Notes under the pieces: generated by a model
Told to the model about the DNA's origin: nothing
What the model saw: only the letters and a program-made list of their open reading frames with translations
Databases searched by the model: none
Virus record (IMG/VR): IMGVR_UViG_3300020436_000010
Strand: one strand, 5' to 3'
Source: an uncultured virus (IMG/VR IMGVR_UViG_3300020436_000010)
Taxonomy: Duplodnaviria; Heunggongvirae; Uroviricota; Caudoviricetes
DNA length: 64,000 nucleotides
Shown: positions 1-63,142 of the stretch, piece by piece
How the letters are laid out: every line of letters begins with the position of its first letter
How positions within the stretch are numbered: the stretch's first letter is position 1
Made by a program: the position numbers and the translations under genes

Positions 1-500
1 GGTACCTGAACTACCTCCAGAACCTGCTGAACCAGCGGACCCTGCCGAGCCTGCAGAACCTGCTGAACCAGCGGACCCTGCCGAGCCTGCAGAACCTGCA
101 CTGCCAGCGGACCCTGCCGAACCTGCACTACCTGCACTACCTGCTGAACCTGCCGAGCCTGCTGAACCAGCGGAGCCTGCCGAACCTGCACTGCCAGCGG
201 AGCCTGCCGAACCTGCACTGCCAGCGGAGCCTGCCGAACCTGCACTGCCAGCGGACCCTGCCGAACCTGCACTGCCAGCGGACCCTGCCGAACCAGATGA
301 ACCAAAAAACAATCCATCAGATCCATCAGTACCAGAAGATCCAGAAGAACCTGCATCACCTGAACTACCTGACGATCCAGTTGTGCCAGATGAGCCTGCT
401 GAACCTGCACTACCAGAGGTACCAGTTGTTCCTGAAGAACCACCAGATCCTGATGAACCTGCAGTTCCAGATGAACCTGAAGAACCTCCTGGACCAGCAT
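1..500. repeat. Coding tandem repeats (9-nt unit; about 4 near-identical 27-nt units CCTGCCGAACCTGCACTGCCAGCGGA[G/C] at ~176-293) encoding (GSA)n on the - strand
   Basis: Directly visible; much more GC-rich than the rest of the window. Confidence 0.9.
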
Positions 501-2415
501 CACCACTTCTAGCAAAAGATATCAATAAATCTAAGTTATTTGTAAAACCAGAACCTGCATTCGAAACTAAAGAACAATCTACTTCAAAATGTCCTATCTG
601 TGTAACCATTGAATTGATGACAAACAACATAAAATTACCAGGCACACCTCTTTGTGATATTTTAAAATGTCCTTTAATTGTATTTGTTGAATCATCAATT
701 GTTGATAGAAAATCAGTAATGTTAGATGAATCTTGATCTAATTGGTCAATGCTTAATTTTGTTACGTTTGCTGGTGTCGAATTATTTAATTTTAACTTGC
801 CAGCACCAGGGTCAGATACTACTGTGCTTGTAGAAAATTGATACTTAAATGTTACACCACCAAAATCACCATCTGCTCCAGATGTTCCTGATGATCCTGC
901 AGTGCCAGAAGAACCTCCAGATCCTGATGATCCTGCACTACCAGTTGAACCAGATGTTCCATGAGTACCTAAAAACGAACCATCAATACCGTCTGTACCA
1001 GATGATCCTGCTGAGCCTGCAGTACCAGATGAACCTGCACTGCCTGCGGACCCTGCTGAACCTGACGAACCTGCACTACCTGTTGAACCTGCACTACCTG
1101 TTGAACCAGCGGTGCCTGCTGAGCCTGCACTACCTGCTGAACCCGCAGTTCCTGAACTACCGCCTGAACCTGAAGATCCAGTTGTACCAGACGATCCTGC
1201 ACTACCTGCTGAACCTGTAGATCCTGCTGACCCAGTTGATCCTGCAGTTCCTGAACTACCACCTGAACCTGAAGATCCAGTTGTACCAGATGAACCTGCT
1301 GAACCTGCAGATCCTGCTGAACCAGATGTTTGACCTTCAAGTATAATAGATTTAAGAGTGACTTCTCCAGGATTATCACCAGGTACTAATGAAAGACCAT
1401 CACCTGATGTGACAGAAATTGATGTGACATTGGTGACAGAGTTACCTGAACCCCCTGTCTCATCTATTGTGAGAGGTGTTGATGCTTGACCAAATTCTAA
1501 ATGAGTACCGTTTGCGGTAACACGTAATACTTGACCAGTATTGCCAAGAGATGTATCTGTAATTTCTTTGTTTTCAAGTATTGAAAGTATTTGATTATTA
1601 GAAGTATCACGTATAGAAAAATCTGTACCAGTCGTGGCCGCAAATCCAAGAACTGCATTTTGAGTGCCAGTTCCAATAACCAAACTTTGAGTTTTATTAA
1701 CTCTCAGACTGTTTTTTATTATTACATTATTATTTTCATCTACATCAATAATATCAGTATTAAGACCAATTGTAATCGTACCTGAAGTTTGAGATACAGA
1801 AAAAATTGTTGTAGCATCAATTGAACGAAATTGCATAAAAGCAGTTTCACCATCTTGGCGCATTTGCTTAAATACTTGAACTGTGCCTGAACCTATATTT
1901 TCACCAAAAGATTCTTTACCGCCACCGCCACCACCTTGATATTCACCCCACCCAATAGAATTTACTTTTTGTGCGGTACTTGCTGATTGTTGTCCAACGT
2001 TTTTAAGAGTTTCTTTGATGCGTTTGATATCATCCTCAAGAGGTGCGATCTCTGCACTATCTCCTTGAAGACCCCTCTCCCCTTGAGGTCCTCTCTCACC
2101 TGGGTCTCCTTTTTCTCCCTGAGGTCCCATGAGACCTTGAACACCCATCTTACCATCAATACCTGACGGTCCGATCTCACCTCTCGCACCTTGAGGACCT
2201 GTCTCTCCACGTTCTCCACGTTCCCCTTTTGGTCCTCTCGCACCTTTAATCTCAAGAATCTTAATGCTTTGACCAGTCTCTGGATCAAGAACTTCTTTAA
2301 ATTCTTCGATTAATTCTCGCTTGGCTCTGCGAAATTCTTTTTGAGTGTATGCGAGAGAGGCGGCTAGAACTTTTTGTAATTCTAGATTCTCTGCATTATC
2401 CTTATCGTTGCTCAC
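1..2415 (-). CDS. Collagen-like / Gly-Ser-Ala repeat protein (putative fibre or head decoration), partial; runs off the left edge (>805 aa)
   Basis: Manual translation from GTG at 2415 (MSNDKDNAENLELQK...) stays open to base 1. It has 21 Gly-X-Y triplets (GARGPKGERGER...GLQGDS, 2056-2244), then GSA/GSS/GTT tracts separated by a globular domain. It is absent from the ORF track, probably because there is no stop codon in the window. Confidence 0.9.
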   Translation of the reverse strand, partial: MSNDKDNAENLELQKVLAASLAYTQKEFRRAKRELIEEFKEVLDPETGQSIKILEIKGARGPKGERGERGETGPQGARGEIGPSGIDGKMGVQGLMGPQGEKGDPGERGPQGERGLQGDSAEIAPLEDDIKRIKETLKNVGQQSASTAQKVNSIGWGEYQGGGGGGKESFGENIGSGTVQVFKQMRQDGETAFMQFRSIDATTIFSVSQTSGTITIGLNTDIIDVDENNNVIIKNSLRVNKTQSLVIGTGTQNAVLGFAATTGTDFSIRDTSNNQILSILENKEITDTSLGNTGQVLRVTANGTHLEFGQASTPLTIDETGGSGNSVTNVTSISVTSGDGLSLVPGDNPGEVTLKSIILEGQTSGSAGSAGSAGSSGTTGSSGSGGSSGTAGSTGSAGSTGSAGSAGSSGTTGSSGSGGSSGTAGSAGSAGSAGTAGSTGSAGSTGSAGSSGSAGSAGSAGSSGTAGSAGSSGTDGIDGSFLGTHGTSGSTGSAGSSGSGGSSGTAGSSGTSGADGDFGGVTFKYQFSTSTVVSDPGAGKLKLNNSTPANVTKLSIDQLDQDSSNITDFLSTIDDSTNTIKGHFKISQRGVPGNFMLFVINSMVTQIGHFEVDCSLVSNAGSGFTNNLDLLISFARSGDAGPGGSSGSSGTAGSSGSGGSSGTTGTSGSAGSAGSSGTTGSSGSSGDAGSSGSSGTDGSDGLFFGSSGSAGSAGSAGSAGSAGSAGSAGSAGSAGSAGSAGSAGSAGSAGSAGSAGSAGSAGSAGSAGSAGSAGSAGSAGSAGSAGSAGSAGSAGSAGSGGSSGT
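870..1330. repeat. Second Gly-Ser-X coding repeat tract
   Basis: Repeated cctgctgaa/cctgcacta/gatcctg units; - strand reads GSAGSAGSSGTTGSSGSGG... Confidence 0.85.
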
Positions 2416-4825: not shown

Positions 4826-4835
4826 TTAAAACTCC

Positions 4836-7154: not shown

Positions 7155-7234
7155 GTTTTTCTCCTGTGATTGGTGTAATTGGTATTAACTATTTATTTTT
7201 TTGCGAATTTTAGTGTGATTTTTATTTATTGAAA

Positions 7235-7242
7235 TATAAATA
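7235..7242 (+). promoter_or_regulatory. T4-type late promoter TATAAATA
   Basis: Exact consensus, 5 nt before the HNH ATG. Confidence 0.7.
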
Positions 7243-7247
7243 TAATC

Positions 7248-16074: not shown

Positions 16075-16276
16075 GTTTTCCTCTTATGTCTTGAAGGTGA
16101 AATAAAACCAAATCTAATTTATGTTTTAAATCATTCACTTCGTTTCTCAAATTATTTATTTGTTGTGACTCCGATAATTTTTTTCTATGTTTCAACAATG
16201 CCTGTTTATCATTAGCGAGTATGGCATTATTATCAAGATCTTTCAAATAATTTGGATGATCCGTTTTAACTTTCAT
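16067..16276 (-). CDS. Small coiled-coil hypothetical protein
   Basis: Translationally coupled 69-aa ORF; INNLRNEVNDLKHKL heptads. Confidence 0.75.
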   Translation of the reverse strand: MKVKTDHPNYLKDLDNNAILANDKQALLKHRKKLSESQQINNLRNEVNDLKHKLDLVLFHLQDIRGKHA

Positions 16277-25006: not shown

Positions 25007-25014
25007 TATTTATG
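25007..25014 (-). promoter_or_regulatory. Late promoter-like CATAAATA
   Basis: 5 nt upstream of the gp8 ATG. Confidence 0.55.
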
Positions 25015-29213: not shown

Positions 29214-31115
29214 TTAGTATGTTGATGATGAAGTAGTTGCGGAAGTCGTTGTACTTGTGCTTGTACTTGTTGTTGTCGATGTAGTTGTTGCGCCTGTATC
29301 AGTGGCGGTTGTAAGGCCAGATTTCACACTTGAAACATCATTCATTGTTATATTTAAATTACTCTCGCTTATCAATACAACCTGTTCTCTAAGTGGTCTC
29401 ACATCTAATTTATCAGGTTTTATGATAATATCTAATGTTGAACCTACATATGCTGAAGGATTAAAAAGATTCAAAGTAACTTCACCTTTTTTATAATCAA
29501 CCGTTCCTTGTTTATCATAAACTATTGTTTTTATTCCATCGACAATTCTGAATACACGAATATCACCATCCTTATCATCAAACTTACAACCAGAACGAGA
29601 AATATTTTCACCGTCTAAAATAGTAAATTCTGTTGATGTCACTGCACCCAAATGCCCTACGTGAGGATAATGTATAGGATTGCTAAATTTAATTGAATAA
29701 TTTAATTTTTCATTGAGAGTTGGATTAATAGATTTCTTGAGTTTCATTGTTACTTCATTACCAACTATGGATGAATTTGTATCATCAATGGCTCTTGTCA
29801 ATCTAGAAACTCTTAATTCTTTTGAGAACTCTTGAAGTTCATTTTGTGAATAAGAGGTTATTGAATCAATCACATCACGTTTTAAAACCGAATCCGTTTT
29901 ACTCGTAAATCGTGCATCGTAATTAACTGTTAAAGTTATTATAGGAAAAATGTAATCAATATCTACAAATTCAGGTGTAATAGAACCAACATTGTATTTG
30001 TTTAAAATATCTCTAATAAAATCTTTAACGGATGTCGTAATTGCTAAACCTGATTTTGGTTTGACACCGATAAAAACCTTTCCATATTGAGGTGGGTCTG
30101 CATTTTCTCCTCCATAAACTATAACCGATTCTGCTTGAGGATATTCTCTTGTAATAATTCTTTTATAATCATTGGATGTAACTGCACGATTTTGCACCTC
30201 ATAATGTCTAGGTGCATTGAATCTTATATTGTCATTGGTTTCTTCATCTGATCCACCGACCGATGAAGATATTGTAGTGACAGTCGCTCCAGAATATCCT
30301 CCAACAGTTGATACTGGTGAAAAAATTCTAGCACCATTACCTAACGTGCCGTTTGTAATATTATATCCGATTATAACTAAATTACCTGTCTTTTCTTTTC
30401 TACCTAAAACACCATCTCCAAATCTTACTTGATACGTGTCATCTGAATCAGGTTCAATGAAAAAAATATTTGAAGTTGAATTAATATTTAAGAGATCTGT
30501 TGCTAAACTGTATGAACTTTGAGTCGTATTTTCCTCACTTTCTTGTAGAATTACAGTTATTGAATCTGTATCAACTCCTCTATTTGGAATTTTGTATTTG
30601 ATTGTCTCATTTGCAGTGTTTGCAACATATCTAAATGTTAATGGTTCTCCTTGCAATAATTTAACGTTTGGAATTGTTATTGTTGAATTACCATTAGCAG
30701 ATGCCGAGTAAGATTTGTCAGTTACGAAAGAAAAAGTAATACCATTTATTTCAGTTTTAAATCTCGTATTTTTTGCTATTGTTATATTTGTAGGACTATC
30801 ATTAGGAGTAACGGATATATTAACATTTGCATAAGAACTTTTTCTTGAGCGTGGAAGATATCCCAACATTTTTGAAAGAGACATTAAAGAGTTTCTATTA
30901 ATAGCACTGTCTATAAACATCTCATTCGCAACCATATTTAAATAAAATGCATTTACATGTGAGTTGTATGCCATCACATCTAACAAAACAGAAAAAGCAG
31001 AACCAGTTGCATCATAATCTGTGAATTCATCTTGAGTTGCTAAATAGTTTTTAAAATTAGTTCTTAATTCTTCAAAATCTAATCCTGTCAATCTCAAGTT
31101 TGATGGGGAAGCCAT
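29214..31115 (-). CDS. gp6: Baseplate wedge subunit (gp6)
   Basis: LDFEEL, FTDYD..GS..SVLLDVMAYN, FGDGVLG, QNRAVT..DY, PPQYGKVFI. Confidence 0.96.
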   Translation of the reverse strand: MASPSNLRLTGLDFEELRTNFKNYLATQDEFTDYDATGSAFSVLLDVMAYNSHVNAFYLNMVANEMFIDSAINRNSLMSLSKMLGYLPRSRKSSYANVNISVTPNDSPTNITIAKNTRFKTEINGITFSFVTDKSYSASANGNSTITIPNVKLLQGEPLTFRYVANTANETIKYKIPNRGVDTDSITVILQESEENTTQSSYSLATDLLNINSTSNIFFIEPDSDDTYQVRFGDGVLGRKEKTGNLVIIGYNITNGTLGNGARIFSPVSTVGGYSGATVTTISSSVGGSDEETNDNIRFNAPRHYEVQNRAVTSNDYKRIITREYPQAESVIVYGGENADPPQYGKVFIGVKPKSGLAITTSVKDFIRDILNKYNVGSITPEFVDIDYIFPIITLTVNYDARFTSKTDSVLKRDVIDSITSYSQNELQEFSKELRVSRLTRAIDDTNSSIVGNEVTMKLKKSINPTLNEKLNYSIKFSNPIHYPHVGHLGAVTSTEFTILDGENISRSGCKFDDKDGDIRVFRIVDGIKTIVYDKQGTVDYKKGEVTLNLFNPSAYVGSTLDIIIKPDKLDVRPLREQVVLISESNLNITMNDVSSVKSGLTTATDTGATTTSTTTSTSTSTTTSATTSSSTY

Positions 31116-38800: not shown

Positions 38801-39427
38801 AAGTGAGTTGATAACTCTTTTTGCGGCATCATCACCTTCTTCCCATTCTTTTGGATTAAGATAATTATAAATTGTATTCAGTGTATTATTAACCCATTCA
38901 TCATCAAGACTTTTTGTTGAAATTACCTCATTATCTTCAATTGTTATATTTTCATAAGCACTAAAATTAAAACTAATACCAGTTTGTTGAAATAATTGAT
39001 CCCTATCACCAATAACATTAATAGTTTCAAATTCATTTTTTGAAGGATTCCATCTTAATTTTTCAGGATTTATCTCATTCAATGATGCGATCATTGCTTC
39101 GATTGCCTGTAATGCCTGAGTTGTATCAATGCCAGACTCTACTTGTCCTGATTCCCATGGCCAAACTGTTAATGTTCCGAAACCAATGTTTTTAAGATCT
39201 TCAATCGCCTCTATCAATTGATCAATAGCAGGTATGAGAATCAATGCAATTGGATCTGCAACAGATCTTAAAAATACTTTTGTAATATTAAGAAATTGTA
39301 TTAGCGTACCTAAACCACCAGAAACATCACCTGCAAATGTTGCGATATTTGTCAATACTGCATTTAAAATGGGATCATTTTGCTGAAAGAGTTTAGCCTG
39401 ATCGAATTCTACTGGTGCATCAGCCAT
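35810..39427 (-). CDS. Large hypothetical protein (hydrophobic/amphipathic N-terminus, coiled coil, C-terminal Ig-like domain), 1205 aa
   Basis: Long ORF in the gp5-gp25 operon. Confidence 0.8.
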   Translation of the reverse strand: MADAPVEFDQAKLFQQNDPILNAVLTNIATFAGDVSGGLGTLIQFLNITKVFLRSVADPIALILIPAIDQLIEAIEDLKNIGFGTLTVWPWESGQVESGIDTTQALQAIEAMIASLNEINPEKLRWNPSKNEFETINVIGDRDQLFQQTGISFNFSAYENITIEDNEVISTKSLDDEWVNNTLNTIYNYLNPKEWEEGDDAAKRVINSLNESFKIRTLTPAQFVSEVNSSFSDSNDPARPVGSGDYVAFVGFFALPTHHALRDMINALLKFFTNFLRNIPDLQDDKITEIELGHPLVISGIEKEIDIAMGEATVQVDNELLNLSNEISENIVDSGIADDATQEASRLKGIIDDAKIKFQEYGSEIANYSSRILELQQDLLSTPDAISVEQEIARLSGLKTTAQKNYREQFIIQQEFGRKYTQEIAKSQNLKEAYNKSLEKGSQLEAKRNALEKRKENISLDNTTLKKKYYSLDETSKRDLSAITEQKIFTPRNNRHNGVTIPFFEPEQIIQQGHVFNDFTAEVVSHSQIIVQDGQVISNKVKVRKVRGAIRPSTTSPQQTINVPPIIALDGKKLDTFGVLKTGQGLSGARESLEFPMFAPANPDVPQTQPAIKFKASIVSGTDTLFTVLPVNDEVIQYGETIDIYKDEKSLNKPSFQMTMENFVENLTVGSPILHNFLTTAPVSEFDIPVNPFDRLSWSVFPGVGVTPVIKKVKIGGKDIEKQDIKTQLFIPYEKNKSSKTIVYREMKEITIEIGRLTKTGDIEPYPKENIKVPDDGSQVTGVQTNATLATPFTLMKIDGARSSIPNWKFTRIQDLFPIYGEVIDAIVNKLEFAKDLAGGALEDINKWIEYFEKLVRDLKQLNQDIQNLLQFLASGLDKAGLYSASFSGNDGVAGFKKRLSGAKIKNVNLEPVKEFSLEPVSVTNRRQNPITGAQETITSEVLKLIAKENPESVGDQLLSWSDLDSLKYSGGFVFYAQGNDTKLLEKFLLTSGLKKTEEKENPQPLTSTDGAGDGGIDFAEVNSLLENVQPLVDKIQVQQIGEENDNVFIDANSAENVRKNTQIKILFKNQSSILTPEEKQKIKDAKNNDFIFDVDIQYGSVFTARTDDVSLGNVILSKDNFQTATPLSFAIQPVRETITINDNEIQVVNAIIVKPQENLESLTNYKLKILTTVLNTGNQLLKEEFELGTGFKTAATQISDIGLL

Positions 39428-52376: not shown

Positions 52377-52968
52377 GTTTCTTTCGTAGTATTGTACGAA
52401 ATTTCGTCTTATCCACCTCCAAGAATGGAGAATACTTTTGCACCTTTTTACGAAATTCTGGCCAGACTATTTTTTCTTTAATCTGTTTATTCCATCTAGG
52501 TACAAAATTAACAACATCATTAATAATTATAAAAGTCTCAATCATAATATATTTAGCAAGACACATTTTTAACAAAATGGGATGCTGACCACTTTCGACT
52601 TTAAATAGATCATCAAATTGATGCTCATTCAAAAGTTTATCAATATCATTTGAAAACATATATGATAAACTTTGAATTCTTTTTTGCCAATCTTTATAAG
52701 CAATATCGGCTTGTTCTGTTAATGTATCTGTCATCCAAAAAAATTCATTATCAACTAAGTTGGCAACAAAAAATTTTGTTATCTCTTCATCATTATAAGT
52801 TTTTGCAAGTTTTGCGAAAAGAAAATTATCTTTTCTTTTAGAGAATGTCATTTTTGAAGTACGAATATTCATACTATCATATTTGAAATAGTCATACGAT
52901 GGTGACGTAAAATGTCTTTTTATCGCAAGATATTCTTTGTAACATTCATAAGGTTCCACTTTAATCAT
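52363..52968 (-). CDS. gp59: Helicase loader (gp59)
   Basis: YLAIKRHF...YDYFKY, RKD..LF.KLA, FFVAN; gene order 33-59-32. Confidence 0.92.
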   Translation of the reverse strand: MIKVEPYECYKEYLAIKRHFTSPSYDYFKYDSMNIRTSKMTFSKRKDNFLFAKLAKTYNDEEITKFFVANLVDNEFFWMTDTLTEQADIAYKDWQKRIQSLSYMFSNDIDKLLNEHQFDDLFKVESGQHPILLKMCLAKYIMIETFIIINDVVNFVPRWNKQIKEKIVWPEFRKKVQKYSPFLEVDKTKFRTILRKKLDIS

Positions 52969-53189
52969 AATCCAGGTATGCGAGTTGGTTTTGGAAGAAA
53001 ATGTAAATTTTCTGCCTCTTCTCTTATTTTTTGTTTTAAGGATCCTTGTACAAGTTTTCCAATAGTTTCAATTTCTATTTTGTGTTCTTCACAATAGTAT
53101 TGAATAGCGTCCATATAAGTCATATTTTTTGATCTTTTGATATGTTCTATTGCTATTGTAAAATCTTGAGGAGATAATATTTTAAGCAT
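52965..53189 (-). CDS. gp33: Late transcription coactivator (gp33)
   Basis: F...IE....YMDAI..YCEE..IE.E....L....LK.KI..EA..L.FL. Confidence 0.9.
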   Translation of the reverse strand: MLKILSPQDFTIAIEHIKRSKNMTYMDAIQYYCEEHKIEIETIGKLVQGSLKQKIREEAENLHFLPKPTRIPGL

Positions 53190-56100
53190 TTAATTTCTTT
53201 ATGATTTCATCGATTGATTTTTTAACCATATCTGGCGTAATACTCTTTGTACATACAAAGTCATTATTGTCAGGACACCAGTCCCATTTACCAGGGTCAA
53301 AAGTGTGTCGATTATAACAACTATTACATACATCTTTATTGTGAATTCTTTCACAATCTATTTGAAATTCTGAATAAGGTTCGCTAAAACCTGATATAAG
53401 AACTACATGTTTATTCAAGGACCATGCAAGCCATGATAGTCCAGAACCAAGACCCATAAAAAATTCACAACCATTTATTGTAGCAATAGTTTGATCAAGT
53501 GTTCTTTCGTGTCTATGAATAACTCCTTCTGGTGATTGATTCATGAAGTCACCTGCACCAAAAGTACCATGTTTATCGACACAAACAACATCAAAGTTTT
53601 TTTCTTTTAAGTATTTAACTATCTCATTCCAACCTCCTTCGTAATTCCAATATTTTGCTTGTGCAGTAGATTGCATCCCAATACAAACGTATGGATTTTG
53701 CAATTCTGCTTCAAGTTCATTTACACTTATTTTAGCACGTTCTTCCCTATAGTCAAGACCTAGAATAGAAGATGAGACTTTTTGTAAAGGAACTTTCATA
53801 GTATCGACAGGACATGCATCAGGATCTGCCTTTAACCAACCAACCCAATAATGATAATCAAAAGGTTTTTCGGCTAATGTTTTATTATGATCATCTAAAA
53901 ATGTAATATTAGGATATTGTTCTCTAAATAAATGATTGAAGAATGTAAAACAATAGACCTTGCAATTATGCTTTTGTTGAAATTGATTCACTGAACCAAT
54001 CCATGCTAGATTATCACCTAAAGCACCTGAATCAAAATAAACATATACTGATTCTTTTGATAAATCCATTAGATGCTCAAATACAATTGTGCCAGTCTTT
54101 TTTTCTGCAACCTCTATTTTCCAATTTACAAAATATTTTATGTTTGAACCTGCCCAACAATTATTAGTAATTGTATTTCTATAGATTACACTACCAGTAT
54201 CTTGATTGTAAAATGTTATATCATATTCTTTATTGTTCGGCCCCAATATTTCAATAATTGGATTAGGTTCAAATTTTAAATTTATTTCATTTGTTTCAAT
54301 AACAGGTTCTTTTATTTTAAAATCAGTCTCAGAATATGCATATACCAGACGATCTTTCATAGTATTTTGCCAATTATTTTTAAGATCTCTGGCCTCATAA
54401 TAATATTGCTCTAATGTTTTAAAGATGTTTATCCAATCTCTTTCAACCGCAAATGCTCTTGCTTTTTTAGAATAATCATCATAATCGTTAATGATATTTC
54501 TTATACCATCGACAATCGTATCAACTTCTCTTGTACATTGTACCATACCAGAAATCTCTACCTCATCTTGCATAGTACCTACGCACGGCAAACCACATGC
54601 CATCGCTTCCAAAACTGCTAGACAAGGTTGTCCAGTTTCTATCGTTGATGGATGAATAATTATACTATGTTCGTTGAGAACTGACCTCAATTCATGCTTA
54701 TCAATGTTTCCTGTTTGATGTATTTCAATATTATTTTTTGCATTATTTAAAACGGCATTAAAAATTTTATTATAATTGTCATGAATGCTATCAGGTCCTA
54801 CAATCGTAATTGGCAAACCCAATTTATCTGCCGCCTGAATTGCTAAATGAAAGCCTTTTCTGTCATCACCTCCACCTACGCATACTAATCTTGTTTCTTT
54901 CTTCTGATTTGTTGGAAAGAAAAAATTTGAATCAACACCATGATCTAATTTTCGCAATTTTTCACCGTGTTCGTAATAAGGAATTAGATGATTACAAGGA
55001 ATCATAGAAAATAATGAATTTTTTATTGACTCATCATTTACCTTATAATACCATGAGTCTTTTCCATTGATCCACGGATGAACATCATGAGTTGTAAAAA
55101 TATACGGTATTCTTCTATCTCTTACAATATCGTTAAAACCACCAGTATGAACGTGAAATATGTCATATTCTTCGATGTCTGCTTGAGTTATATCATCTAA
55201 CCACTTTAAAGAAACATTATGACCATAATACTCAGCCATTCTTATGTAATGATATATAACTTCTTCTAGCCCACCGTATTTTTTTGGTGGTATGTCAAGA
55301 CCACATCCTACATGAACTTGCATTATTTTTAGATTATCAGAAGTTGTTTTTACTCTTTCTACATGTGTTTTTTCAAAAGGTTGTTGTTCTACTTCTATTT
55401 TTGGCTCATGAAATTTTTTGAGAGATACAATATGATATCGATTCTGTTGTTCAAAAAAATTAAAAAAATATCCCATCTGCACAACTTTATCTTGAATTGA
55501 TGCAATATTATCTTCGTTTGTTCTTAAATTAAAATGAAGATTTTTATTTTCTGAAAACAAAATCAATTCATAATTTTGCGATCCGCTACGTTGTATTCGT
55601 TCTAAGAGTTTTTCAATTTCAAGAGATGTTGTGTCTAATTGAATTTTTACAAAATAATATTCTATAACTTGATCAAACTTGTCGAAATTAATATCATGAT
55701 CAAAAAATAATCTATAAATTTTATCTTGTTGTTCTACAGTATATTGAAAGTTGATGAAAGATACGTTTTGAGGTGTTGTGGCCCAATTAAGTGATGTATT
55801 ATAAGTTGATTCTGCTAACTCATAAACATCATCAAAGTATTTTAAATTTCTTGGTTGTTCAAGAACAAAGTGTGTTCTACGTTCTTTCGCATCAATTGCT
55901 AATTGTGCTTCACCTCTTTGATTCCATCGTGTAAAATTTTCAGATGCACCATGCTCTCTTGCTAGATATAGTGTTCTCGGAATACTCAACCATTTGCCTC
56001 GTTCTTCAAGCATCAATAACCACTGTCCATCATTTGAAGAACACGCATCACCGTCTTGATGCTCTGGAAAATCTAATCCAGGTAAATTTCTAAAGATCCT

Positions 56101-57417
56101 TAAATAACCAAATATGCCACTTCTACAATGCCATAGTTTTTGAAATCCTTCTAGAAATGAATCATTGTCGTTTGAAATATAAACATTGTCTTTGTAATTT
56201 TCAAAAGTTTTTTCTGGACCTTCTGGTAATATTTCTGAATATTTGTTAGCATTAAAATGCATCAAGACAACTTCAGGAAACATTTGAAAATAATAATTTA
56301 TTTTTTCAAAACAGTTTGGTAGCAATTTATCATCAGCATCTAAATGACAAACAATATCTCCGCTTGCAAACTTTTGTGGATTCCACCACATTTGTTTTTT
56401 GTGATTTGGATAAGCAACTTTAATTCTTGGATCTTTACTTTGAAGATCTAAAAGTTTTTGAAGTGTATTGTCATCTGAAAAATCATCACCAACAACCCAT
56501 TCCCAATTGTCATAATTTTGATTGATAACACTATCTGCCAACTCATCAATAAATCTTTCTGCATTGAAGCACGATGTTACAAGAGAAAGTTTGAGACCTT
56601 TGCTCTTAGGCTCGTATTTAGAACGTACAATATTATACTTTTTTTCGACAACAATTTGATTTTTAACTTCGTCAAATTCCCATGCTACAGGCTCAACCCA
56701 CTGTCCTGCAGTAGATGCTGATCTCTCATAAAACCAATCATAATTATAACTGTATATTTTAGGAAATTTTTCATCACTAAATTTGTCACGCAATCTTTCA
56801 GTGCCAGCATATTCATTATCTCTAAAACCTTCATTCTCAATTGACAAATCTAACAATAATTCTCTATTCCAAATCGTAGGCTGATGAGAAATCAACCAAT
56901 CGTTATCTCTTTTCCACTGAAGAAGTTTTCGATCATGAATAATTAAATCAGTTTCATGTTTAGGAATAACATCTTCACCACGTTTTACTCTATGCAATTT
57001 CATTGCACCAACATCATACGCATAACAAAATTTTGCAAGATCTGCAAATACCTCTTTATCAACCTTAAATTTAGGCCATTGATCTTCTTGTAGATAAAGA
57101 ATATATTTTGTATCTACACTTTTGAGCATATGAATTAATCTATTACTCCAACCCTCATCTATCTGTTTAGGTCCGCCATACGTAGGCAACCAGTCACGTT
57201 TTTCTGTACCCCAATATTTTTTGCTCTTACCTGTTTTAATTTGTTTAATTCTATCGTCTTTGTAAGGAAAATCTACTTCTTCATTGCAGAAATATATTTG
57301 CCAGTCAAGATCCCATGCCCAAAAACGATTGAACATAACATACCATCCTTCCCAAAAATGAGAATATGAATCGCATGTTTGTACTAATACACTTACTTTA
57401 TCTTTATGGTATGTCAT
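53182..57417 (-). CDS. Multi-domain glycosyltransferase: GT-A-like + GT2 + GT4 + AAH/TibC-type O-heptosyltransferase, 1411 aa
   Basis: GT2: TSCFNAERFI..SV.NQ.Y.NWEW...DDFSDD, LDADD. GT4: IPP..YGGLE, LAVLEAMACGLP. C-terminus: ALGDNLAW, QSTAQAKYWN..GW, FMGLGSGLSWLAW, LISGFS, CNSCYN..WCP..C. Confidence 0.88.
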   Translation of the reverse strand: MTYHKDKVSVLVQTCDSYSHFWEGWYVMFNRFWAWDLDWQIYFCNEEVDFPYKDDRIKQIKTGKSKKYWGTEKRDWLPTYGGPKQIDEGWSNRLIHMLKSVDTKYILYLQEDQWPKFKVDKEVFADLAKFCYAYDVGAMKLHRVKRGEDVIPKHETDLIIHDRKLLQWKRDNDWLISHQPTIWNRELLLDLSIENEGFRDNEYAGTERLRDKFSDEKFPKIYSYNYDWFYERSASTAGQWVEPVAWEFDEVKNQIVVEKKYNIVRSKYEPKSKGLKLSLVTSCFNAERFIDELADSVINQNYDNWEWVVGDDFSDDNTLQKLLDLQSKDPRIKVAYPNHKKQMWWNPQKFASGDIVCHLDADDKLLPNCFEKINYYFQMFPEVVLMHFNANKYSEILPEGPEKTFENYKDNVYISNDNDSFLEGFQKLWHCRSGIFGYLRIFRNLPGLDFPEHQDGDACSSNDGQWLLMLEERGKWLSIPRTLYLAREHGASENFTRWNQRGEAQLAIDAKERRTHFVLEQPRNLKYFDDVYELAESTYNTSLNWATTPQNVSFINFQYTVEQQDKIYRLFFDHDINFDKFDQVIEYYFVKIQLDTTSLEIEKLLERIQRSGSQNYELILFSENKNLHFNLRTNEDNIASIQDKVVQMGYFFNFFEQQNRYHIVSLKKFHEPKIEVEQQPFEKTHVERVKTTSDNLKIMQVHVGCGLDIPPKKYGGLEEVIYHYIRMAEYYGHNVSLKWLDDITQADIEEYDIFHVHTGGFNDIVRDRRIPYIFTTHDVHPWINGKDSWYYKVNDESIKNSLFSMIPCNHLIPYYEHGEKLRKLDHGVDSNFFFPTNQKKETRLVCVGGGDDRKGFHLAIQAADKLGLPITIVGPDSIHDNYNKIFNAVLNNAKNNIEIHQTGNIDKHELRSVLNEHSIIIHPSTIETGQPCLAVLEAMACGLPCVGTMQDEVEISGMVQCTREVDTIVDGIRNIINDYDDYSKKARAFAVERDWINIFKTLEQYYYEARDLKNNWQNTMKDRLVYAYSETDFKIKEPVIETNEINLKFEPNPIIEILGPNNKEYDITFYNQDTGSVIYRNTITNNCWAGSNIKYFVNWKIEVAEKKTGTIVFEHLMDLSKESVYVYFDSGALGDNLAWIGSVNQFQQKHNCKVYCFTFFNHLFREQYPNITFLDDHNKTLAEKPFDYHYWVGWLKADPDACPVDTMKVPLQKVSSSILGLDYREERAKISVNELEAELQNPYVCIGMQSTAQAKYWNYEGGWNEIVKYLKEKNFDVVCVDKHGTFGAGDFMNQSPEGVIHRHERTLDQTIATINGCEFFMGLGSGLSWLAWSLNKHVVLISGFSEPYSEFQIDCERIHNKDVCNSCYNRHTFDPGKWDWCPDNNDFVCTKSITPDMVKKSIDEIIKKLNA

Positions 57418-58450
57418 GCCAAGAATTACATCCTATAATAAATTGTTTTGTATCGGGGTTTGAAAAATCATATTCTTTAAAGAATTCATCGTTTATCAAA
57501 ATTCTAAAGTGTTTTAACATATCTTCAGCAAAAAAATCAGTTCGATAGGCCCAATCTGCTAGTGGAAAATCACTGTAATAATTGCCATTAATCTCTAAAG
57601 TAACTTTTATTATTCCCTTTGGACTCATAGCAAAAAATTTGTAACCTTTCAACTCTTCCATATATGCCAAACAAATCCATGGCATATCATGATCTGTGTA
57701 AATTTTTTGTTTTTCAAATCCTATTCTTTTCGTTGTTTCTTCTAAATTTTTGATTGTGATATCTGATTCATTATTTCCTTCTCTGTCATTAACAAATGAT
57801 ATACCCATTACATAACCTAATAATTCTTCACCAATTTGCATACCTTCATTTTTCATTTTTTCAATAAGTTGATCATCATTAAACATTGACAGTCTTCTGT
57901 GTAAATAATCAACTTTGCACGACATGATCAAAGTCATAATTTGCCAATGTCTAAATTTAAACCCTCCTTTTTGATTACCGTCAGGTATGCACATGTTTTG
58001 TTTTTCACGTTCATACAAAACTGCTTGCTGACCATTGTTTATTATCAAACTATTTTCAACCAATTCGTCATCTGTAGGTAAGAAACCATCATAATCAAAA
58101 AGATGAATGATGTTCTTATTTAACAATTTTGCATATGAGACACCTGCAAGTAACAACCTATAAACTGCTAGTATCGTGCTATTTTTAAAAAACTCTCTGC
58201 TTGAAATATTGAATCTTGGTGTATAGTGTGTGATGTAGCCTTTGAGACCTATATCATTTATTAGTGTATTGTCTTTATCATAAATTGCATAATCACATAA
58301 TTGTTGTGTATCTTTATCTAAAGGTAAATGGCTTGCGACAATAACATCATAACCAAAATCTTTAAACTGTTTGATGAATTTATGACAAATTTCTTTTCTT
58401 TCATTAGTAGAAAGATATGCATGAAGTAAAACAATTTCATCAGATTTCAT
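57404..58450 (-). CDS. Hypothetical protein in the glycosyltransferase island (possible GT-A-like, DYD motif)
   Basis: 348-aa ORF overlapping both neighbours; IIHLFDYD. Confidence 0.7.
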   Translation of the reverse strand: MKSDEIVLLHAYLSTNERKEICHKFIKQFKDFGYDVIVASHLPLDKDTQQLCDYAIYDKDNTLINDIGLKGYITHYTPRFNISSREFFKNSTILAVYRLLLAGVSYAKLLNKNIIHLFDYDGFLPTDDELVENSLIINNGQQAVLYEREKQNMCIPDGNQKGGFKFRHWQIMTLIMSCKVDYLHRRLSMFNDDQLIEKMKNEGMQIGEELLGYVMGISFVNDREGNNESDITIKNLEETTKRIGFEKQKIYTDHDMPWICLAYMEELKGYKFFAMSPKGIIKVTLEINGNYYSDFPLADWAYRTDFFAEDMLKHFRILINDEFFKEYDFSNPDTKQFIIGCNSWHDIP

Positions 58451-61148
58451 ATGTTATATCACCCTCTTTTAATAACGTAGTGCCATCCTTGTGTGTTTTA
58501 TCCAGATATGAATCTCCAGAGCATTGTATTGAAATAGGCTCTTTAGTTATTGCACATTTTTTATCAGGAAATACGAATGTGTTAAGCCAAAGATCATATG
58601 TGTCCCAACCAGTATTCTCAAACTTTTCAATGAAATACGACTTTTTAGTTGTCGGTACGAGATAACAATGTGCTTCAGACATTCTATCTGTTATGCCAAA
58701 GAATTCATGCTCTTCATAATGCCAATCAGGAATTCGTTTGCCAAATGACATGTAATTCAAATCATTATACATCAATTCATCGTAACTGTCAATAATTATT
58801 TTAAATATTTCTTCAGGCGGTTTAATAAAAATTGCATCACATTCGCAAAAAAGCACGGCATCAAAATCATCAATCATATGATTTTCAAACACTTTTCTGT
58901 GTGCTACATAATTACCATAATGAGCACCTGTTAATTTGTAATCACCAGGTTCTAACTGCACTACATCTGGTCTTGCACAAGTATCAGCAGGGGGTAAATC
59001 GGTGTATCTTTCGTTCATCGATTGCTCATATACCCAACCAGAAACTTCAATTAATCGATGCATGTGTTTAATACTTTCGGTTTCTCTTGGGCCATTCGTA
59101 TTGCATAACATATGTACGATTTTAATTTTAGGAAATCTTTTTGCCCATAATTGTCCAAGACCATTTTCATCAGGTTGAGAACTTTCAATATGTTTTCTTT
59201 CAACATCGAAACCAAGAGATATTAAACGTTTTTCAATATCTTTACTTCTTTTATAGTGGTGTTCTAACCCTTTGTCATTGTTAAATTGATGCAACTCTGC
59301 ACTTATTTTTCTCACTTTATATTTAAGAAAATCATCAGATATTGTAGGAAAAATATCCCATTCGGCACCTTCACAATCCAATTTAATAGCATCTATTCTA
59401 TCGATATTATTGTTCTTAATGAATTGATCAAAAGGAACTGTATTAACTTCTATAGTTTTTGTTTGTCCTAGTGACGTTGGATTTTCTTTTTGAGTATTAT
59501 AACTTTCATAAAAAGAATTTGTGCTACTAGGACCGACCAATAAAAATTCTTTTCGTCCAATTTCTTTATCTAAGGCTAGATGATATTTTTTAACATTATC
59601 AAATTCTTTTAAATTTTTACATAATATCTTGAAATTTTCGTGTGACGGCTCAACAATATGAACTGTCTTGGCACCTTGATTCAATGCATACAGACTAAAG
59701 AATCCATAATGCCCTCCAACATCAAGAACTGTATCATTTTTTGAAATATTCATTTTACTATAAACTTTTGAAAGAAATACTTCATTCATAGAGAACCATG
59801 AAGAAGGATCATCTTCCGTACCTATCACATCTATTTCCTTATTCTGTACAACTACCGAAGCAATGTCTCTATCAAAATTATATTGTTTTTCAAAAAGTAA
59901 ATGATGATTGTTTATTCTATTATGATTGACATCTCTTAAACTCGAAAAGAAATTTTCATTCGCATCAAAAATTTTTAAAATAAGACCATCAACAAATGAT
60001 GGTAAGGCATTTGGCATAATAAACATATTTTGAGCCATCACCTTTGATCTCATAATACATAAGTTGTTTCTAGAATCATAAACACAAATCAGTTTGTTTT
60101 CTAATGCTGACCATGCTCTATCAGAAAAATTAATATTGATCTTAACAGGTTTTGACATATCTCCATCATATTCACACCAAGAATTTACATCTCCATCCTT
60201 TAGATCTAGAACGTGTTTTATTTTTAGAAAATTCAAATTATTTTGATCTGATAGATAGATCGCTTTTCTATCATATTTGTCAAGATAAGAATCAATTTTA
60301 TGCATCAATATCGGTATATTCCAACTGTATGCTTCTTTTAAAACTAATGGATTCGTTTCTTTATCACCATCATGACCTCTAGAGGTGAATAAAAATAAAT
60401 CCATACATGAATAAAAATTTTCTGTATCTTTTCTTTCACCCCAAATGATGCAGTTTTGAGGTTTTGAATTCATTAAAGGTTCCCAATAACTTTGAAAATT
60501 TGGTGCTTGATTACCTACAAAATGAAACTGAATTTTTTCATTTTCTAATTGTCTCGCATATTCAAAAATCTCACCTTGATTTTTTCTTGCAGTAAAAAGA
60601 CCTACATTCAAAACATGTTTAAATTCTGGATCAAGACCAAGTAATTTAAGACCTTCTTCACGAGGTTTTCTTTTAAAATTGTATTCAGGATATTCAATAA
60701 CACATGAAGGAACATCAATTGATCTAAATTTTACAAGTTGATTATCACTACAGAACAAAAATTTGTCAGGAAAAAATCTTTTCTTTTTAGGATCAAAAGA
60801 TGAATCATGCGATGTTTCAAAGATTTTATATTTGCGATTCGGATGATAAATCAATTGTGTTAATTCTTCTGAAATATCAAACAGTTCTGGCATTTCTTCA
60901 AAATGTATTATATCAGGTCTGATATTTTTGATGTGTGTCATAAGTTCATACTTATCTTCTTGTAATGTAATGAGAGGATTTTTAAGTATGTCTATTATTT
61001 GATCTTTTTGTATTCTGAATATACCAAAATCTTGAAACTCAATGACATGAACATCATATTCATCTATTATTAGTTCTAGTTTTTTAAGTAAATATTGGGG
61101 AGCCCCACCTGTAGATAGGTGAGGTGTCACATAAAGAAGTTTTTGCAT
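58440..61148 (-). CDS. Fusion: GT4-like + FkbM-family methyltransferase + GT25-like, 902 aa
   Basis: PHLSTGGAPQYL, VGLF..RKNQ, MDLFLFTS, E.NPLVLKEA; VLDVGGHYGFFS..EPS..IDAIKLDCEGAE; G.YGNY.AH..CECDA. Confidence 0.85.
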   Translation of the reverse strand: MQKLLYVTPHLSTGGAPQYLLKKLELIIDEYDVHVIEFQDFGIFRIQKDQIIDILKNPLITLQEDKYELMTHIKNIRPDIIHFEEMPELFDISEELTQLIYHPNRKYKIFETSHDSSFDPKKKRFFPDKFLFCSDNQLVKFRSIDVPSCVIEYPEYNFKRKPREEGLKLLGLDPEFKHVLNVGLFTARKNQGEIFEYARQLENEKIQFHFVGNQAPNFQSYWEPLMNSKPQNCIIWGERKDTENFYSCMDLFLFTSRGHDGDKETNPLVLKEAYSWNIPILMHKIDSYLDKYDRKAIYLSDQNNLNFLKIKHVLDLKDGDVNSWCEYDGDMSKPVKININFSDRAWSALENKLICVYDSRNNLCIMRSKVMAQNMFIMPNALPSFVDGLILKIFDANENFFSSLRDVNHNRINNHHLLFEKQYNFDRDIASVVVQNKEIDVIGTEDDPSSWFSMNEVFLSKVYSKMNISKNDTVLDVGGHYGFFSLYALNQGAKTVHIVEPSHENFKILCKNLKEFDNVKKYHLALDKEIGRKEFLLVGPSSTNSFYESYNTQKENPTSLGQTKTIEVNTVPFDQFIKNNNIDRIDAIKLDCEGAEWDIFPTISDDFLKYKVRKISAELHQFNNDKGLEHHYKRSKDIEKRLISLGFDVERKHIESSQPDENGLGQLWAKRFPKIKIVHMLCNTNGPRETESIKHMHRLIEVSGWVYEQSMNERYTDLPPADTCARPDVVQLEPGDYKLTGAHYGNYVAHRKVFENHMIDDFDAVLFCECDAIFIKPPEEIFKIIIDSYDELMYNDLNYMSFGKRIPDWHYEEHEFFGITDRMSEAHCYLVPTTKKSYFIEKFENTGWDTYDLWLNTFVFPDKKCAITKEPISIQCSGDSYLDKTHKDGTTLLKEGDITYEI

Positions 61149-61169
61149 AATTTTATATGTTTTGTGTTA

Positions 61170-61457
61170 TTGGTTGTTTCTGTTCCCAGGCACAACCAGA
61201 AAAGCCCGTAGCAATTAAGCGGCTAAAGCCACTTGTGCTGAGGTATAATCGTTGTTGTTTGCGATTATTATAACAGACATTTTTACATCTGTCAAGATGT
61301 GTCTCCTCTGCTCATTCACATACAGTCGAATTCCTAAACACCCCCTTATTCTTGACTTTTCTTTAAAATATGCTATCATAATATCATTTATAAATATTGG
61401 TGGAGGTGGTGGGAATTGAACCCACGTCCTGTCCTGCTATCTCTCAGAATCATTGAC
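61170..61457 (-). ncRNA. ssrA: Circularly permuted (two-piece) tmRNA
   Basis: On the - strand: acceptor piece ending GGACGTGGGTTCAATTCCCACCACCTCCACCA (CCA ends at 61398); ~52-nt intervening segment; coding piece starting GGGGGTG...TTCGAC (61345). Acceptor stem has G3.U70. Tag ORF 61262-61215 = ANNNDYTSAQVALAA*. Outer boundaries are approximate. Confidence 0.93.
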
Positions 61458-61462
61458 ATAAA

Positions 61463-61470
61463 TATTTATA
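61463..61470 (-). promoter_or_regulatory. T4-type late promoter TATAAATA for the tmRNA (overlaps a + strand CATAAATA at 61457-61464)
   Basis: Exact consensus just upstream of the acceptor piece. Confidence 0.7.
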
Positions 61471-61489
61471 TAACACTTTTGGACACATT

Positions 61490-63142
61490 ATGGCATATAC
61501 TCCGGCAGAAGCAGATAGAATATTATTTAATTCAGCATCAGATGCAATTAAAAGAATGTCAGATTCGCAAATCGATGCAGTTTCGAAAAAATTACAAGAA
61601 TATTATGCTTTAAAATTATATGAATCTAATTGGAGTGTTACTGGTGATAGTCCATCAACTGGTAATACTTTACCTGAAGTTACTTATGGTGGTGTCTATA
61701 TGGCACAAAGCAATGAATATTCAGTATCAGGTTCTTCTACTGATGTTACTAATAGAGGTTCATTATCAGATACCGTTTGGAATTCTCAGACAGTAAGTAA
61801 TCCAAATGATGATGATCCACAAGCACAACCAAATGCATTTGCTGGTGATGACGATGATTCTTTTAGCCCAGGGAACTTTACGTCAAATCCCGCTTCAATG
61901 ACATCAAGCACTCAGGCTACATACAATTGTTTTCAAAGAACTAACCCAGACTATCTTTCAGCCAGAACAACCCTTACTTCTGGTCTTTCTCCAGGTGATC
62001 TCAATAGATATTGGGGTTATGTCAAAGCAAATGCAACTACTGGTTTTGTACAAGCAGAAGCCGATGCACAAAAAGTCAGAGAAATAATTTTTACAAATGT
62101 GAATAGTAACATAAGAAGCACAAGTAATGATAGATGGGGATCTTATTTTTTGAGTTCTACTAATCCAAGCACAGGTGCAAGTGATAGTGGATGGTATTTC
62201 GTAGGTAAATTTGGTGGCGCTAATTCAACCACTGCAGGATATAATGAAGCATTTAGAGATCAAACAAGTGCCCATGCAAGCGTGACTTCTGTATTATTAT
62301 ATGGTGGTTCTGGTAATAATGCAACAAATATAACCTATTATCTTTTTCAAAAAATTCCACAAGGAAGTGATTTTTCAGGTGAAATTGCTCAACCACTTAG
62401 AAGTCATAGATTTAAAATAACAAAAGTATCAGGAACTGCACAAGATGACGAAGGTTCTCATGCAGGAGTAAATGATTATTTTGCATATGGCAATTATGAT
62501 GGTGATATTGGTTCGTACTTCTATATCAAAGTTCAAGCAACGTCTGGCAATTATTACGCATCAAGCGATTTATCAAACCCATCAGATTCAAGTAGTTTTG
62601 ATACAGGTACAACCTATAGTGCTAGTCATGATAACACAAATGGCACGTTATATCCATCAGGAAGTTCATCTAATGGTTTTGTACGTGTATTGATAAATCC
62701 TAGATTTGCAGGTAGTTATAGCACAAATACCGTTTATAAAGTTGAAAAGGTATCGATGTTGAGAGAAATAAGAATGCCTGACATTGAATATTATAGCAGA
62801 TTATATACACAAGGCACGTATTTAGGTTTTGGAAGCACTATCACAGATTACAACAATCAATCTGCCTATAGAAACGATCTACAAAATTCTCTCTATTTAA
62901 TACATTATCTTTACAAATATTATACCTTAGGGAGATATCATCCCATATATACTTTAGAAAGTACAACTGCAGGCACTGGAGAATTTAATCACGGATCGAT
63001 TCATGACACTAAAAAGGGTATAAGCAGTGGCACAACTGTTGGACCTACATTAGATGGTAGTACATATTATATTGCAAGAGTACCCAGTGGGGGACTTGTA
63101 ACACAATCATCAAGATATTTAAATTCAACATCCGATATTTAA
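61490..63142 (+). CDS. Hypothetical Ser/Thr/Gly/Tyr-rich protein (possibly virion), 550 aa
   Basis: Long ORF with structural-protein-like composition and late promoter motifs upstream. Confidence 0.8.
   Translation: MAYTPAEADRILFNSASDAIKRMSDSQIDAVSKKLQEYYALKLYESNWSVTGDSPSTGNTLPEVTYGGVYMAQSNEYSVSGSSTDVTNRGSLSDTVWNSQTVSNPNDDDPQAQPNAFAGDDDDSFSPGNFTSNPASMTSSTQATYNCFQRTNPDYLSARTTLTSGLSPGDLNRYWGYVKANATTGFVQAEADAQKVREIIFTNVNSNIRSTSNDRWGSYFLSSTNPSTGASDSGWYFVGKFGGANSTTAGYNEAFRDQTSAHASVTSVLLYGGSGNNATNITYYLFQKIPQGSDFSGEIAQPLRSHRFKITKVSGTAQDDEGSHAGVNDYFAYGNYDGDIGSYFYIKVQATSGNYYASSDLSNPSDSSSFDTGTTYSASHDNTNGTLYPSGSSSNGFVRVLINPRFAGSYSTNTVYKVEKVSMLREIRMPDIEYYSRLYTQGTYLGFGSTITDYNNQSAYRNDLQNSLYLIHYLYKYYTLGRYHPIYTLESTTAGTGEFNHGSIHDTKKGISSGTTVGPTLDGSTYYIARVPSGGLVTQSSRYLNSTSDI

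Follow-up and report, generated by a model that had tools for sequence, protein, structure and literature searches.

A TibC/Aah-type transferase fused into a phage glycosyltransferase island: a putative O-glycosylation line for a virion protein

What might a tailed phage do with a set of glycosyltransferase (GT) domains fused into giant proteins? The question is raised by a 64,000-nucleotide stretch of DNA from an uncultured virus (IMG/VR record IMGVR_UViG_3300020436_000010; this whole stretch is referred to below as the window). PHROG matches to portal, sheath, tube, terminase and baseplate proteins, gp32 and gp59 identify the window as the structural half of a marine T4-like myovirus. Between a transfer-messenger RNA (tmRNA) and the gp33 gene lie three overlapping, co-oriented genes for proteins of 902, 348 and 1411 residues (genes 1, 2 and 3; Table 1), and both the open reading frames (ORFs) and the two flanks are exactly as an earlier note on this DNA had described them. 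We propose that this island may specify a soluble, cytoplasmic, phage-encoded O-glycosylation line for a virion protein, acting on a giant Ser-rich fibre, and we give this interpretation a probability of roughly 0.55. We begin with two findings in its favour: the nature of the last domain of gene 3, and the company that genes of this type keep in other phages.

The end of the 1411-residue protein had been labelled a heptosyltransferase in the earlier note. The transferase family is upheld and can be named more precisely, as that of the protein O-glycosyltransferases TibC and Aah (the BAHT family). Residues 1047-1405 cover positions 12-374 of the 374 in TIGR04414 ('autotransporter strand-loop-strand O-heptosyltransferase') with a score of 285.5 bits against an equivalog cutoff of 200, and residues 1046-1407 align with residues 23-388 of the 406 in TibC (PDB 4RAP, E 9e-55). 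Residue roles were taken from the portion of the TibC structure paper available to us (PMC4358343) and mapped through a HMMER alignment onto 15 phage homologues. In that text Asp-110 is the catalytic base, Thr-226 and Lys-230 bind phosphate and Trp-305 contacts the sugar. The counterpart of Asp-110 is D1135, in the stretch GALGDNLAW, which is invariant (15/15); so are those of Lys-230 (K1255) and Trp-305 (W1329), and that of Thr-226 (T1251) is kept in 14 of the 15. The Cys residues of the iron finger, C339, C342, C358 and C370 in TibC, correspond to C1364, C1367, C1381 and C1389; they too are invariant in all 15, with metal binding predicted, and F368 is kept in the window domain. Given that it passes the equivalog cutoff and that D110, K230, W305 and all four Cys are invariant, its sequence identifies the domain as a true homologue of the BAHT enzymes, one whose catalytic centre is intact. 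TibC and Aah belong to a family of protein-serine transferases, not of lipid or DNA transferases, which supports a protein as the target.

Doubt attaches to the heptose donor implied by the label. In the same account, Arg-286 of TibC contacts N1 of the adenine and provides the specificity for a sugar activated with adenosine diphosphate (ADP) (PMC4358343). At this position the window has T1310, and the 15 phage homologues have Thr (nine), Arg (five) or Ala (one). As the adenine-contacting Arg is a Thr in the window's lineage, the donor is possibly not ADP-heptose; genes for the activation of heptose or of other sugars were found neither beside the island in three relatives (L007, L020 and L025) nor in the distant loci scanned. 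Pro-300 of TibC is Gly in the window domain. The hydrophobic tip of the TibC β-hairpin thumb, F265-V266, is said in the structure paper to be needed for the dodecamer ring, and the iron finger to bind the protein substrate (PMC4358343); the thumb tip reads Asp-Phe in the window and is polar or variable across the phage homologues.

The second finding concerns the acceptor. The window holds, besides the island, a fibre with Ser-type repeats, and this joint presence favours our proposal. The fibre opens with a Pro-type, charge-rich collagen segment and continues with long proline-free runs of G-S/T-A/S/T/G triplets, so that Ser makes up 19% and Gly 22% of its residues. Globular modules of about 130 residues separate the collagen segment and the Gly-Ser/Thr runs. 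In a 95%-identical relative (L363, 6657-16061) the fibre ORF extends over at least 3135 residues, 1329 of them in proline-free runs, and is open at the contig end.

Two tests of co-occurrence were made. In the first, whole records were searched for the pattern (GGNWSNDSN)x6. Two of seven island-bearing IMG/VR records matched, G002 and the 100%-complete G003. Among GenBank phages with a TibC-type gene, Microcystis phage Mel-JY01 gave 14 matches, 2.6 kb from that gene, and LR756501 gave 1189, some of them about 4 kb away, whereas none of five complete TibC-negative Kyanoviridae carried a Ser-type repeat. Counting the informative records, this window included, the repeat is present in 5/6 with the enzyme versus 0/5 without it (Fisher p = 0.015); with complete records only, the figures are 3/4 versus 0/5 (p about 0.05, calculated by hand). 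The second test scanned IMG/VR for (G-S/T-A/S/T/G)x8, which returned at least 78 flanked loci from at least 63 contigs; a scan for proline-type collagen repeats over a similar number of bases served as control (at least 79 loci from at least 70 contigs). Among the matches listed, a TibC-like gene (205-430 bits) lay within 10 kb in 8 of 63 Ser-repeat contigs, and the single control contig with such a gene also bore Ser-type repeats, leaving 0/69 for the proline-only class (8/63 versus 0/69, Fisher p = 0.002). The eight enzymes share 35-74% identity with one another and 34-41% with the window's; several lie directly next to the giant repeat ORF. Judging from these scans, TibC-like genes are statistically linked to Ser/Thr-type collagen repeats; the co-occurrence with Ser-rich (GSA-type) proteins envisaged in the earlier note is positive in both of these independent tests.

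The TibC-type domain is not alone in its polypeptide. It is preceded in gene 3 by three other GT domains. The GT2 domain scores 66.5 bits against a cutoff of 23.3 (PF00535), and its motifs, D311-D312 (DD) and D360-A-D362 (D-[AS]-D), are kept in all eight homologues that have the domain. The GT4 domain scores 47.6 bits against 26.4 (PF00534); its paired Glu motif has a variant spacing (E927-x9-E937), and both Glu are invariant in 14/14 aligned homologues. The first domain belongs to a family for which Pfam has no model. Its top Foldseek matches are all GT-A glycosyltransferases (RmlT, SpsA, TarS and BoGT6a, E 2e-5 to 3e-4), E111-D112 is near-invariant and E202 invariant. The family comprises 1723 library proteins at E<=1e-3, and a Pfam model over the domain was found in none of 26 scanned; its profile gave only a weak match to GT6 in the PDB (E 0.02). 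Comparison by hhalign related this domain neither to gene 2 nor to the C-terminal domain of gene 1, the profiles being too shallow for this to prove unrelatedness, and no BLASTP match links it to gene 2.

For gene 2, listed as an unknown in the earlier note, Pfam, PHROG and NCBIfam indeed returned no match; however, its AlphaFold 2 (AF2) model (pLDDT, the predicted local distance difference test score, of 80) suggests a fold of the GT-A/nucleoside diphosphate (NDP)-sugar-transferase type over residues 1-255, followed by a C-terminal β-sandwich over residues ~258-348. By VIA, the model is most similar to mannosylglycerate synthase (2y4m; Z 15.3, root-mean-square deviation 3.6, 183 aligned residues); other Foldseek/VIA matches include B4GALNT1 (Z 14.1) and nucleotidyltransferases of the IspD type, that is, cytidylyltransferases (Z ~14). 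D119-x-D121 is invariant in 19/19 sequences. Despite the nucleotidyltransferases at Z ~14, our reading of the model is that gene 2 is probably a GT-A-fold glycosyltransferase rather than a nucleotidyltransferase, because the glycine-rich nucleotidyltransferase loop was not seen by eye.

The 902-residue protein of gene 1 had been parsed as a fusion of GT4, FkbM and GT25-like domains. The first two assignments are confirmed. The GT4 domain scores 31.6 bits against a cutoff of 27 (PF13692), and 14 of the 15 aligned homologues retain its E264-x7-E272 motif ('DKETxP....E'), the exception being the divergent L038. The FkbM-family methyltransferase, which depends on S-adenosylmethionine (SAM), is matched by PF05050 (E 1.6e-17, 64.6 bits against 22.7), TIGR01444 (81.7 bits against 37.7) and the methyltransferase family phrog_8156 (E 7e-16), and has the glycine-rich SAM-binding motif VLDVGGHYG. 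Support for the GT25 label of the C-terminal domain is weak: 4 of 10 homologues give a match to PF01755 (best E 5e-4), the window's copy gives none at E<=5, and a profile of the domain found no match in the PDB. Among its Atlas neighbour clusters 20 of 30 are GT25 (score 0.92), and C101, E102 and D104 (a C-E-x-D stretch, in domain-alignment numbering) are invariant.

The GT-like domains amount to seven (two GT4, one GT2, one GT25-like, two unnamed GT-A-fold and one TibC-like), where the earlier note had counted about six; the methyltransferase that it placed beside them is present. Degenerate catalytic residues, which the earlier note had named as grounds for refutation, were not seen, the motifs being conserved in the GT4, GT2, gene 2 and TibC-type domains.

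Table 1. Positions in the window of the island, its predicted domains, its flanks and candidate acceptors
Feature	Position	Strand	Basis
Gene 1: GT4 - linker - FkbM - GT25-like fusion, 902 aa	58440..61148	(-)	ORF; full-length IMG/VR homologues at 35-98% identity
Gene 1 aa 1-320: GT-B (GT4-type) glycosyltransferase	60189..61148	(-)	PF13692, E 2.3e-7, aa 178-285
Gene 1 aa ~450-665: FkbM-family SAM-dependent methyltransferase	59154..59801	(-)	PF05050, TIGR01444, phrog_8156
Gene 1 aa 668-902: GT25-like domain (weak call), 235 residues	58443..59147	(-)	Homologue matches and Atlas neighbours
Gene 2: predicted GT-A/NDP-sugar-transferase fold protein, 348 aa	57404..58450	(-)	ORF and AF2 model
Gene 3: new GT-A domain, GT2, spacer, GT4 and TibC-like domain fusion, 1411 aa	53182..57417	(-)	ORF
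Gene 3 aa 1-270: predicted GT-A fold domain, family without Pfam model	56608..57417	(-)	AF2 (pLDDT 90.6) and Foldseek
Gene 3 aa 275-520: GT2 (GT-A)	55858..56595	(-)	PF00535, E 3.6e-18
Gene 3 aa 696-1010: GT4 (GT-B)	54388..55332	(-)	PF00534, E 1.8e-12; phrog_2170
Gene 3 aa 1046-1407: complete TibC/Aah-type (BAHT) protein O-glycosyltransferase domain	53197..54282	(-)	TIGR04414, 4RAP
gp33 late-transcription coactivator, downstream flank overlapping the gene 3 stop	52965..53189	(-)	PF16805, E 2.5e-21
Permuted tmRNA, same-strand upstream flank	61215..61461	(-)	RF04321, 100.8 bits; RF01849 alpha_tmRNA, 50.9 bits; ARAGORN 61124-61494
T4-type late-promoter-like TATAAATA, just upstream of tmRNA and island	61463..61470	(-)	Motif scan; weak hint
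Candidate acceptor: start of giant fibre gene, beside the portal gene, running off the window	1..2415	(-)	Translation; PF01391, E 3.9e-46
Alternative acceptor: C-terminal poly-Ser/Thr tail (29/40 residues) of gp6-like baseplate wedge protein	29217..29339	(-)	Composition; phrog_219

How might these activities work together? In the mechanism that we favour, the TibC/Aah-type domain would recognize a Ser-rich repetitive acceptor and place the first sugar on serine hydroxyls. The six other GT-like domains (the two GT4, the GT2, the GT25-like and the two GT-A-fold) would then extend and branch this sugar, and FkbM would O-methylate a sugar as a cap. The two giant fusions, together with translational coupling of the genes through overlapping stop and start codons (overlaps of 11 nt between genes 1 and 2, 14 nt between genes 2 and 3, and 8 nt between gene 3 and gp33), could hold the activities together and keep their stoichiometry. 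The most likely acceptor would be the phage's own giant fibre, with its hundreds of proline-free Gly-Ser/Thr-X triplets; other Ser/Thr-rich virion proteins are possible alternatives. No membrane segments were found in the three proteins (maximum 19-residue Kyte-Doolittle mean below 1.5), and membrane anchoring was rejected on this simple hydropathy measure. The earlier note had already sketched a fusion in which a protein transferase primes, other GTs extend and a further enzyme caps with methyl, at work on the virion. The domain identities, motifs and co-occurrence fit that sketch and support it in part; that a glycan is made, from which sugars and donor, in what order and on which acceptor is what we infer from the genes.

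The island recurs in other phages. Two protein-guided scans of IMG/VR yielded 39 loci, which were mapped. In 25 distinct IMG/VR contigs, at identities from 99% down to 50%, the gene ending in the TibC domain adjoins gp33-gp59-gp32, with a ClpP-like gene inserted in three of them. Homologues of gene 3 are 50-99% identical over their full length, and in distant phages the GT4-TibC half is 34-37% identical. The remaining parts come and go. The N-terminal domain of gene 3 is a separate gene in L020-L022 and L037, where it stands beside a 61%-identical homologue of gene 2 a few kb upstream, and it is missing from L013 and L024. Nine distant loci (34-37% identity) share a core composed of the gene 1 GT4 domain, accompanied by FkbM in six of the nine, and the GT4-TibC half; in L033, L034 and L036 the GT4 part is separated from the TibC part, and these loci have a second TibC-like paralogue. 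Tailoring genes in the distant loci encode a DegT aminotransferase with an N-formyltransferase, or a carbamoyltransferase. This pattern of sequence similarity indicates that the island is under purifying conservation with modular reshuffling across phages. In five distant loci (L028-L032) an oversized sheath gene (1100-1349 residues, nearly twice the usual size; for example L030:17053-20907) follows 2-6 kb downstream of the island.

Beyond these loci, tblastn against phage records found the GT4-TibC half in a 735-kb huge phage and the TibC part in Mel-JY01 and in a 636-kb phage; megablast against 50,697 phage records revealed no nucleotide relatives of the island. In Mel-JY01 (L055, record positions 95-2130 and 4750-8430) the TibC-type domain is contained in a 1226-residue gene annotated just as 'methyltransferase FkbM'. 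Upstream of it Gly-Ser/Thr repeats are read on the plus strand, whereas the deposited coding sequences are on the minus strand, and the fibre gene of this phage may therefore be mis-annotated. Two relatives, L020 (756-1796, 5092-5562) and L025 (1582-2616, 5121-5570), have upstream of the island a radical-SAM gene, a gene for a small 2-oxoglutarate (2OG)-Fe(II) oxygenase (PF13640, of the prolyl-hydroxylase-like group) and ORFs without assigned function; a role of the radical-SAM and oxygenase genes in modifying the fibre or the sugars is possible.

Several observations weigh against the proposal that the island glycosylates the fibre. TibC modifies Ser in the loops of a β-helix, not in collagen-like triplets. 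Arg-286, the thumb tip and the autotransporter partner are not kept, so donor nucleotide, oligomeric state and acceptor recognition may all differ from those of TibC. No partner autotransporter was found: the neighbours of the island are gp33 and the tmRNA, and the 36 window ORFs scanned are structural, replicative or without assigned function. In the window's lineage the fibre is about 51 kb from the island, and adjacency therefore lends no support here. Five of the seven island-bearing records searched lack the repeat pattern; we regard them as uninformative rather than contrary, because they are 17-34% complete and the portal region is absent from the three that were checked. The complete TibC-positive huge phage LR756504 has no Ser-type repeats and, among the matches listed, most Ser-repeat contigs (all but 8 of 63) have no TibC-like gene within 10 kb. 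The samples behind both co-occurrence tests are small, and the contigs are phylogenetically non-independent. Late expression of the island is also uncertain, since gp33, gp59 and gp32, which share its strand, belong to the early or middle genes of T4. Finally, no glycan, glycoprotein or enzyme activity has been seen for any member.

One could envision, instead, that the island remodels a host structure during infection, be it lipopolysaccharide or capsule intermediates, the S-layer or a surface protein, for instance to block superinfection or to alter recognition. GT2, GT4 and GT25 enzymes mostly make envelope glycans, peripheral GTs that act on lipid-linked sugars likewise have no membrane segments, and cyanomyovirus papers take the many GT genes of those phages as host-surface modifiers (PMC12801897, in the portion available); such a role would recall the sets of cell-wall and lipopolysaccharide genes proposed for cyanophages. 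Nonetheless, we consider this role unlikely. A domain of the TibC-type protein-serine transferase family is covalently fused to GT2 and GT4, and this fusion argues for one pathway with one protein substrate. The annotated ORFs of the window (36 flanking ORFs compared with PHROGs, 11 of them also with Pfam) and the island neighbourhoods scanned yielded no phosphoglycosyl transferase for priming and no flippase, polymerase or ligase. Moreover, the module tracks phage fibres with Ser-type repeats.

The last point bears equally on a closer relative of our proposal, namely that the virion is glycosylated on another protein: the tail of the gp6-like protein, a Ser/Thr-rich protein of 550 residues encoded across the tmRNA, or the tail sheath. 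Each has something to recommend it. The C-terminal stretch of the gp6-like protein has 29 Ser/Thr in 40 residues; the 550-residue ORF (61490-63142) contains 14% Ser and 10% Thr and is only 26-30% identical between island-bearing relatives; and the sheath genes that follow the island in L028-L032 are the oversized ones described above. Glycans of mycobacteriophages, furthermore, sit on the Ser/Thr-rich C-termini of capsid and tail-tube proteins (PMC12619734, citing Freeman 2023, in the portion available). On the other side, the window's own sheath is of ordinary size (772 residues), and the statistical linkage applies to Ser-type collagen repeats, the only repeats for which it was tested. We judge a different virion acceptor somewhat less probable still than host remodelling. 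The gp6-like gene as a whole spans 29214-31115 (-), and its tail is reminiscent of the C-terminal tails that are reported to be glycosylated in virion proteins of mycobacteriophages.

Hypermodification of the phage DNA, by assembly of an oligosaccharide on hydroxymethylated bases, is very improbable: T4-like phages do glucosylate their own DNA, and phage clusters with at least two GTs can build di- and trisaccharides on 5-hydroxymethylcytosine, yet such clusters adjoin a C5-methyltransferase and 5mYOX/TET, or a ThyS-type hydroxymethylase (bioRxiv 10.1101/2023.12.21.572611, in the portion available), and no gene of these types was found among the ORFs of the 64-kb window or in the scanned neighbourhoods of its relatives, FkbM is not a family of DNA methyltransferases, and the TibC-type domain retains the architecture of a protein transferase, with the iron finger to which the protein substrate binds in TibC.

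If the fibre is indeed glycosylated, how far could the idea be carried? Galactosyl-threonine stabilizes the collagen triple helix in the cuticle collagen of tube worms. By analogy, a defined, methyl-capped oligosaccharide on the Ser/Thr of the triplets might stabilize and stiffen the triple helix of the phage fibre in place of hydroxyproline, and might give it a mucin-like coat resistant to proteases and grazers. The giant fusions and the GT-A protein could form one machine that moves along the nascent fibre, much as a ring of TibC has been proposed to screw along TibA. The replacement of the adenine-contacting Arg by Thr would then reflect a BAHT domain that has changed its donor from ADP-heptose to another. 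We hold this extended scheme to be doubtful.

Comparison with characterized systems shows what would be old and what new. As in TibC of enterotoxigenic Escherichia coli and Aah, the partner of AIDA-I (PDB 4RAP and 4RB4 for the BAHT family), nearly the whole enzyme is recovered, here in the last 362 residues of gene 3; and, like those enzymes, the island protein is soluble and expected, here by prediction from the genes, to hyperglycosylate Ser of a long repetitive protein. Unlike TibC, a stand-alone protein of 406 residues, the island domain is fused behind three other GT domains. It is also phage-encoded, without an autotransporter, and its proposed acceptor is a collagen-like triplet repeat rather than a β-helix. 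Soluble multi-domain transferases have a viral precedent in chlorovirus PBCV-1: its A064R, a GT-GT-methyltransferase, and A111/114R, with three GT domains, assemble the glycan on a structural protein of the virus itself and cap it with methyl, independently of host machinery (PMC9614988, in the portion available). The likeness is one of function: the PBCV-1 enzymes come from a eukaryotic virus, make N-linked capsid glycans, have at most three domains per protein and include no priming domain of the BAHT type. Mycobacteriophages offer a parallel among tailed phages, as their GTs decorate Ser/Thr-rich parts of their own virion proteins (PMC12619734, citing Freeman 2023); there, in contrast, the acceptors are short C-terminal tails, the GT genes alongside are single-domain, and the portion of that paper available to us does not mention a TibC-type enzyme. 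No description of the module turned up in the literature on TibC or heptosyltransferases in phages, virion glycosylation, collagen-like fibres and FkbM in marine myoviruses, and the earlier note's suggestion of an undescribed phage glycosylation pathway holds within the literature searched.

Few phages have documented virion glycosylation, and the BAHT enzymes known so far all serve as partners of autotransporter adhesins in bacteria. Should our proposal be correct, tailed phages of ocean and lakes would run their own multi-step protein glycosylation by means of a conserved and widespread BAHT-based module, and the puzzling proline-free Gly-Ser/Thr 'collagen' fibres would acquire a function. 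The substrate range of BAHT enzymes, and perhaps their donor range, would be widened. The seven GT-like domains would amount to naturally fused, soluble assembly lines of interest to glycoengineering, and the glycan could bear on phage adsorption, on particle stability and on recognition by grazers or host defences.

The surroundings of the island give some indication of its setting. The guanine-plus-cytosine (GC) content is about 32% across the window, most of which lies at 31-35%, and 30.5-32% in the island; composition gives no hint of a recent foreign insertion. The portal protein is 52-54% identical to portals of Kyanoviridae cyanophages and to that of Pelagibacter phage Mosig. The tmRNA is of the two-piece (permuted) kind, with the tag peptide ANNNDYTSAQVALAA, and reaches the alphaproteobacterial model RF01849 with 50.9 bits against a gathering score of 50. 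This match, together with the GC content of about 32%, hints at a SAR11-like host; permuted tmRNAs occur in marine cyanobacteria too. The element TATAAATA, which closely precedes the tmRNA and the island, would be consistent with expression late and together with the virion genes. It is a weak hint, since the window contains no excess of the motif (6 found versus 9.2 expected), five of the six copies being intergenic and upstream of genes.

Two further features of the window may be mentioned. Huge structural proteins (2304, 1400, 1218 and 1205 residues), scarcely annotated, are encoded at 16276-23190, 25010-29212 and 32154-39427 (-); matches within them comprise DUF4815, one Big_5 domain and phrog_358, a family of unknown function. 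A gene for an HNH endonuclease (7248-7667, +), probably a mobile homing element, separates the sheath gene from that of the large terminase; it is oriented oppositely and has a copy of TATAAATA directly upstream.

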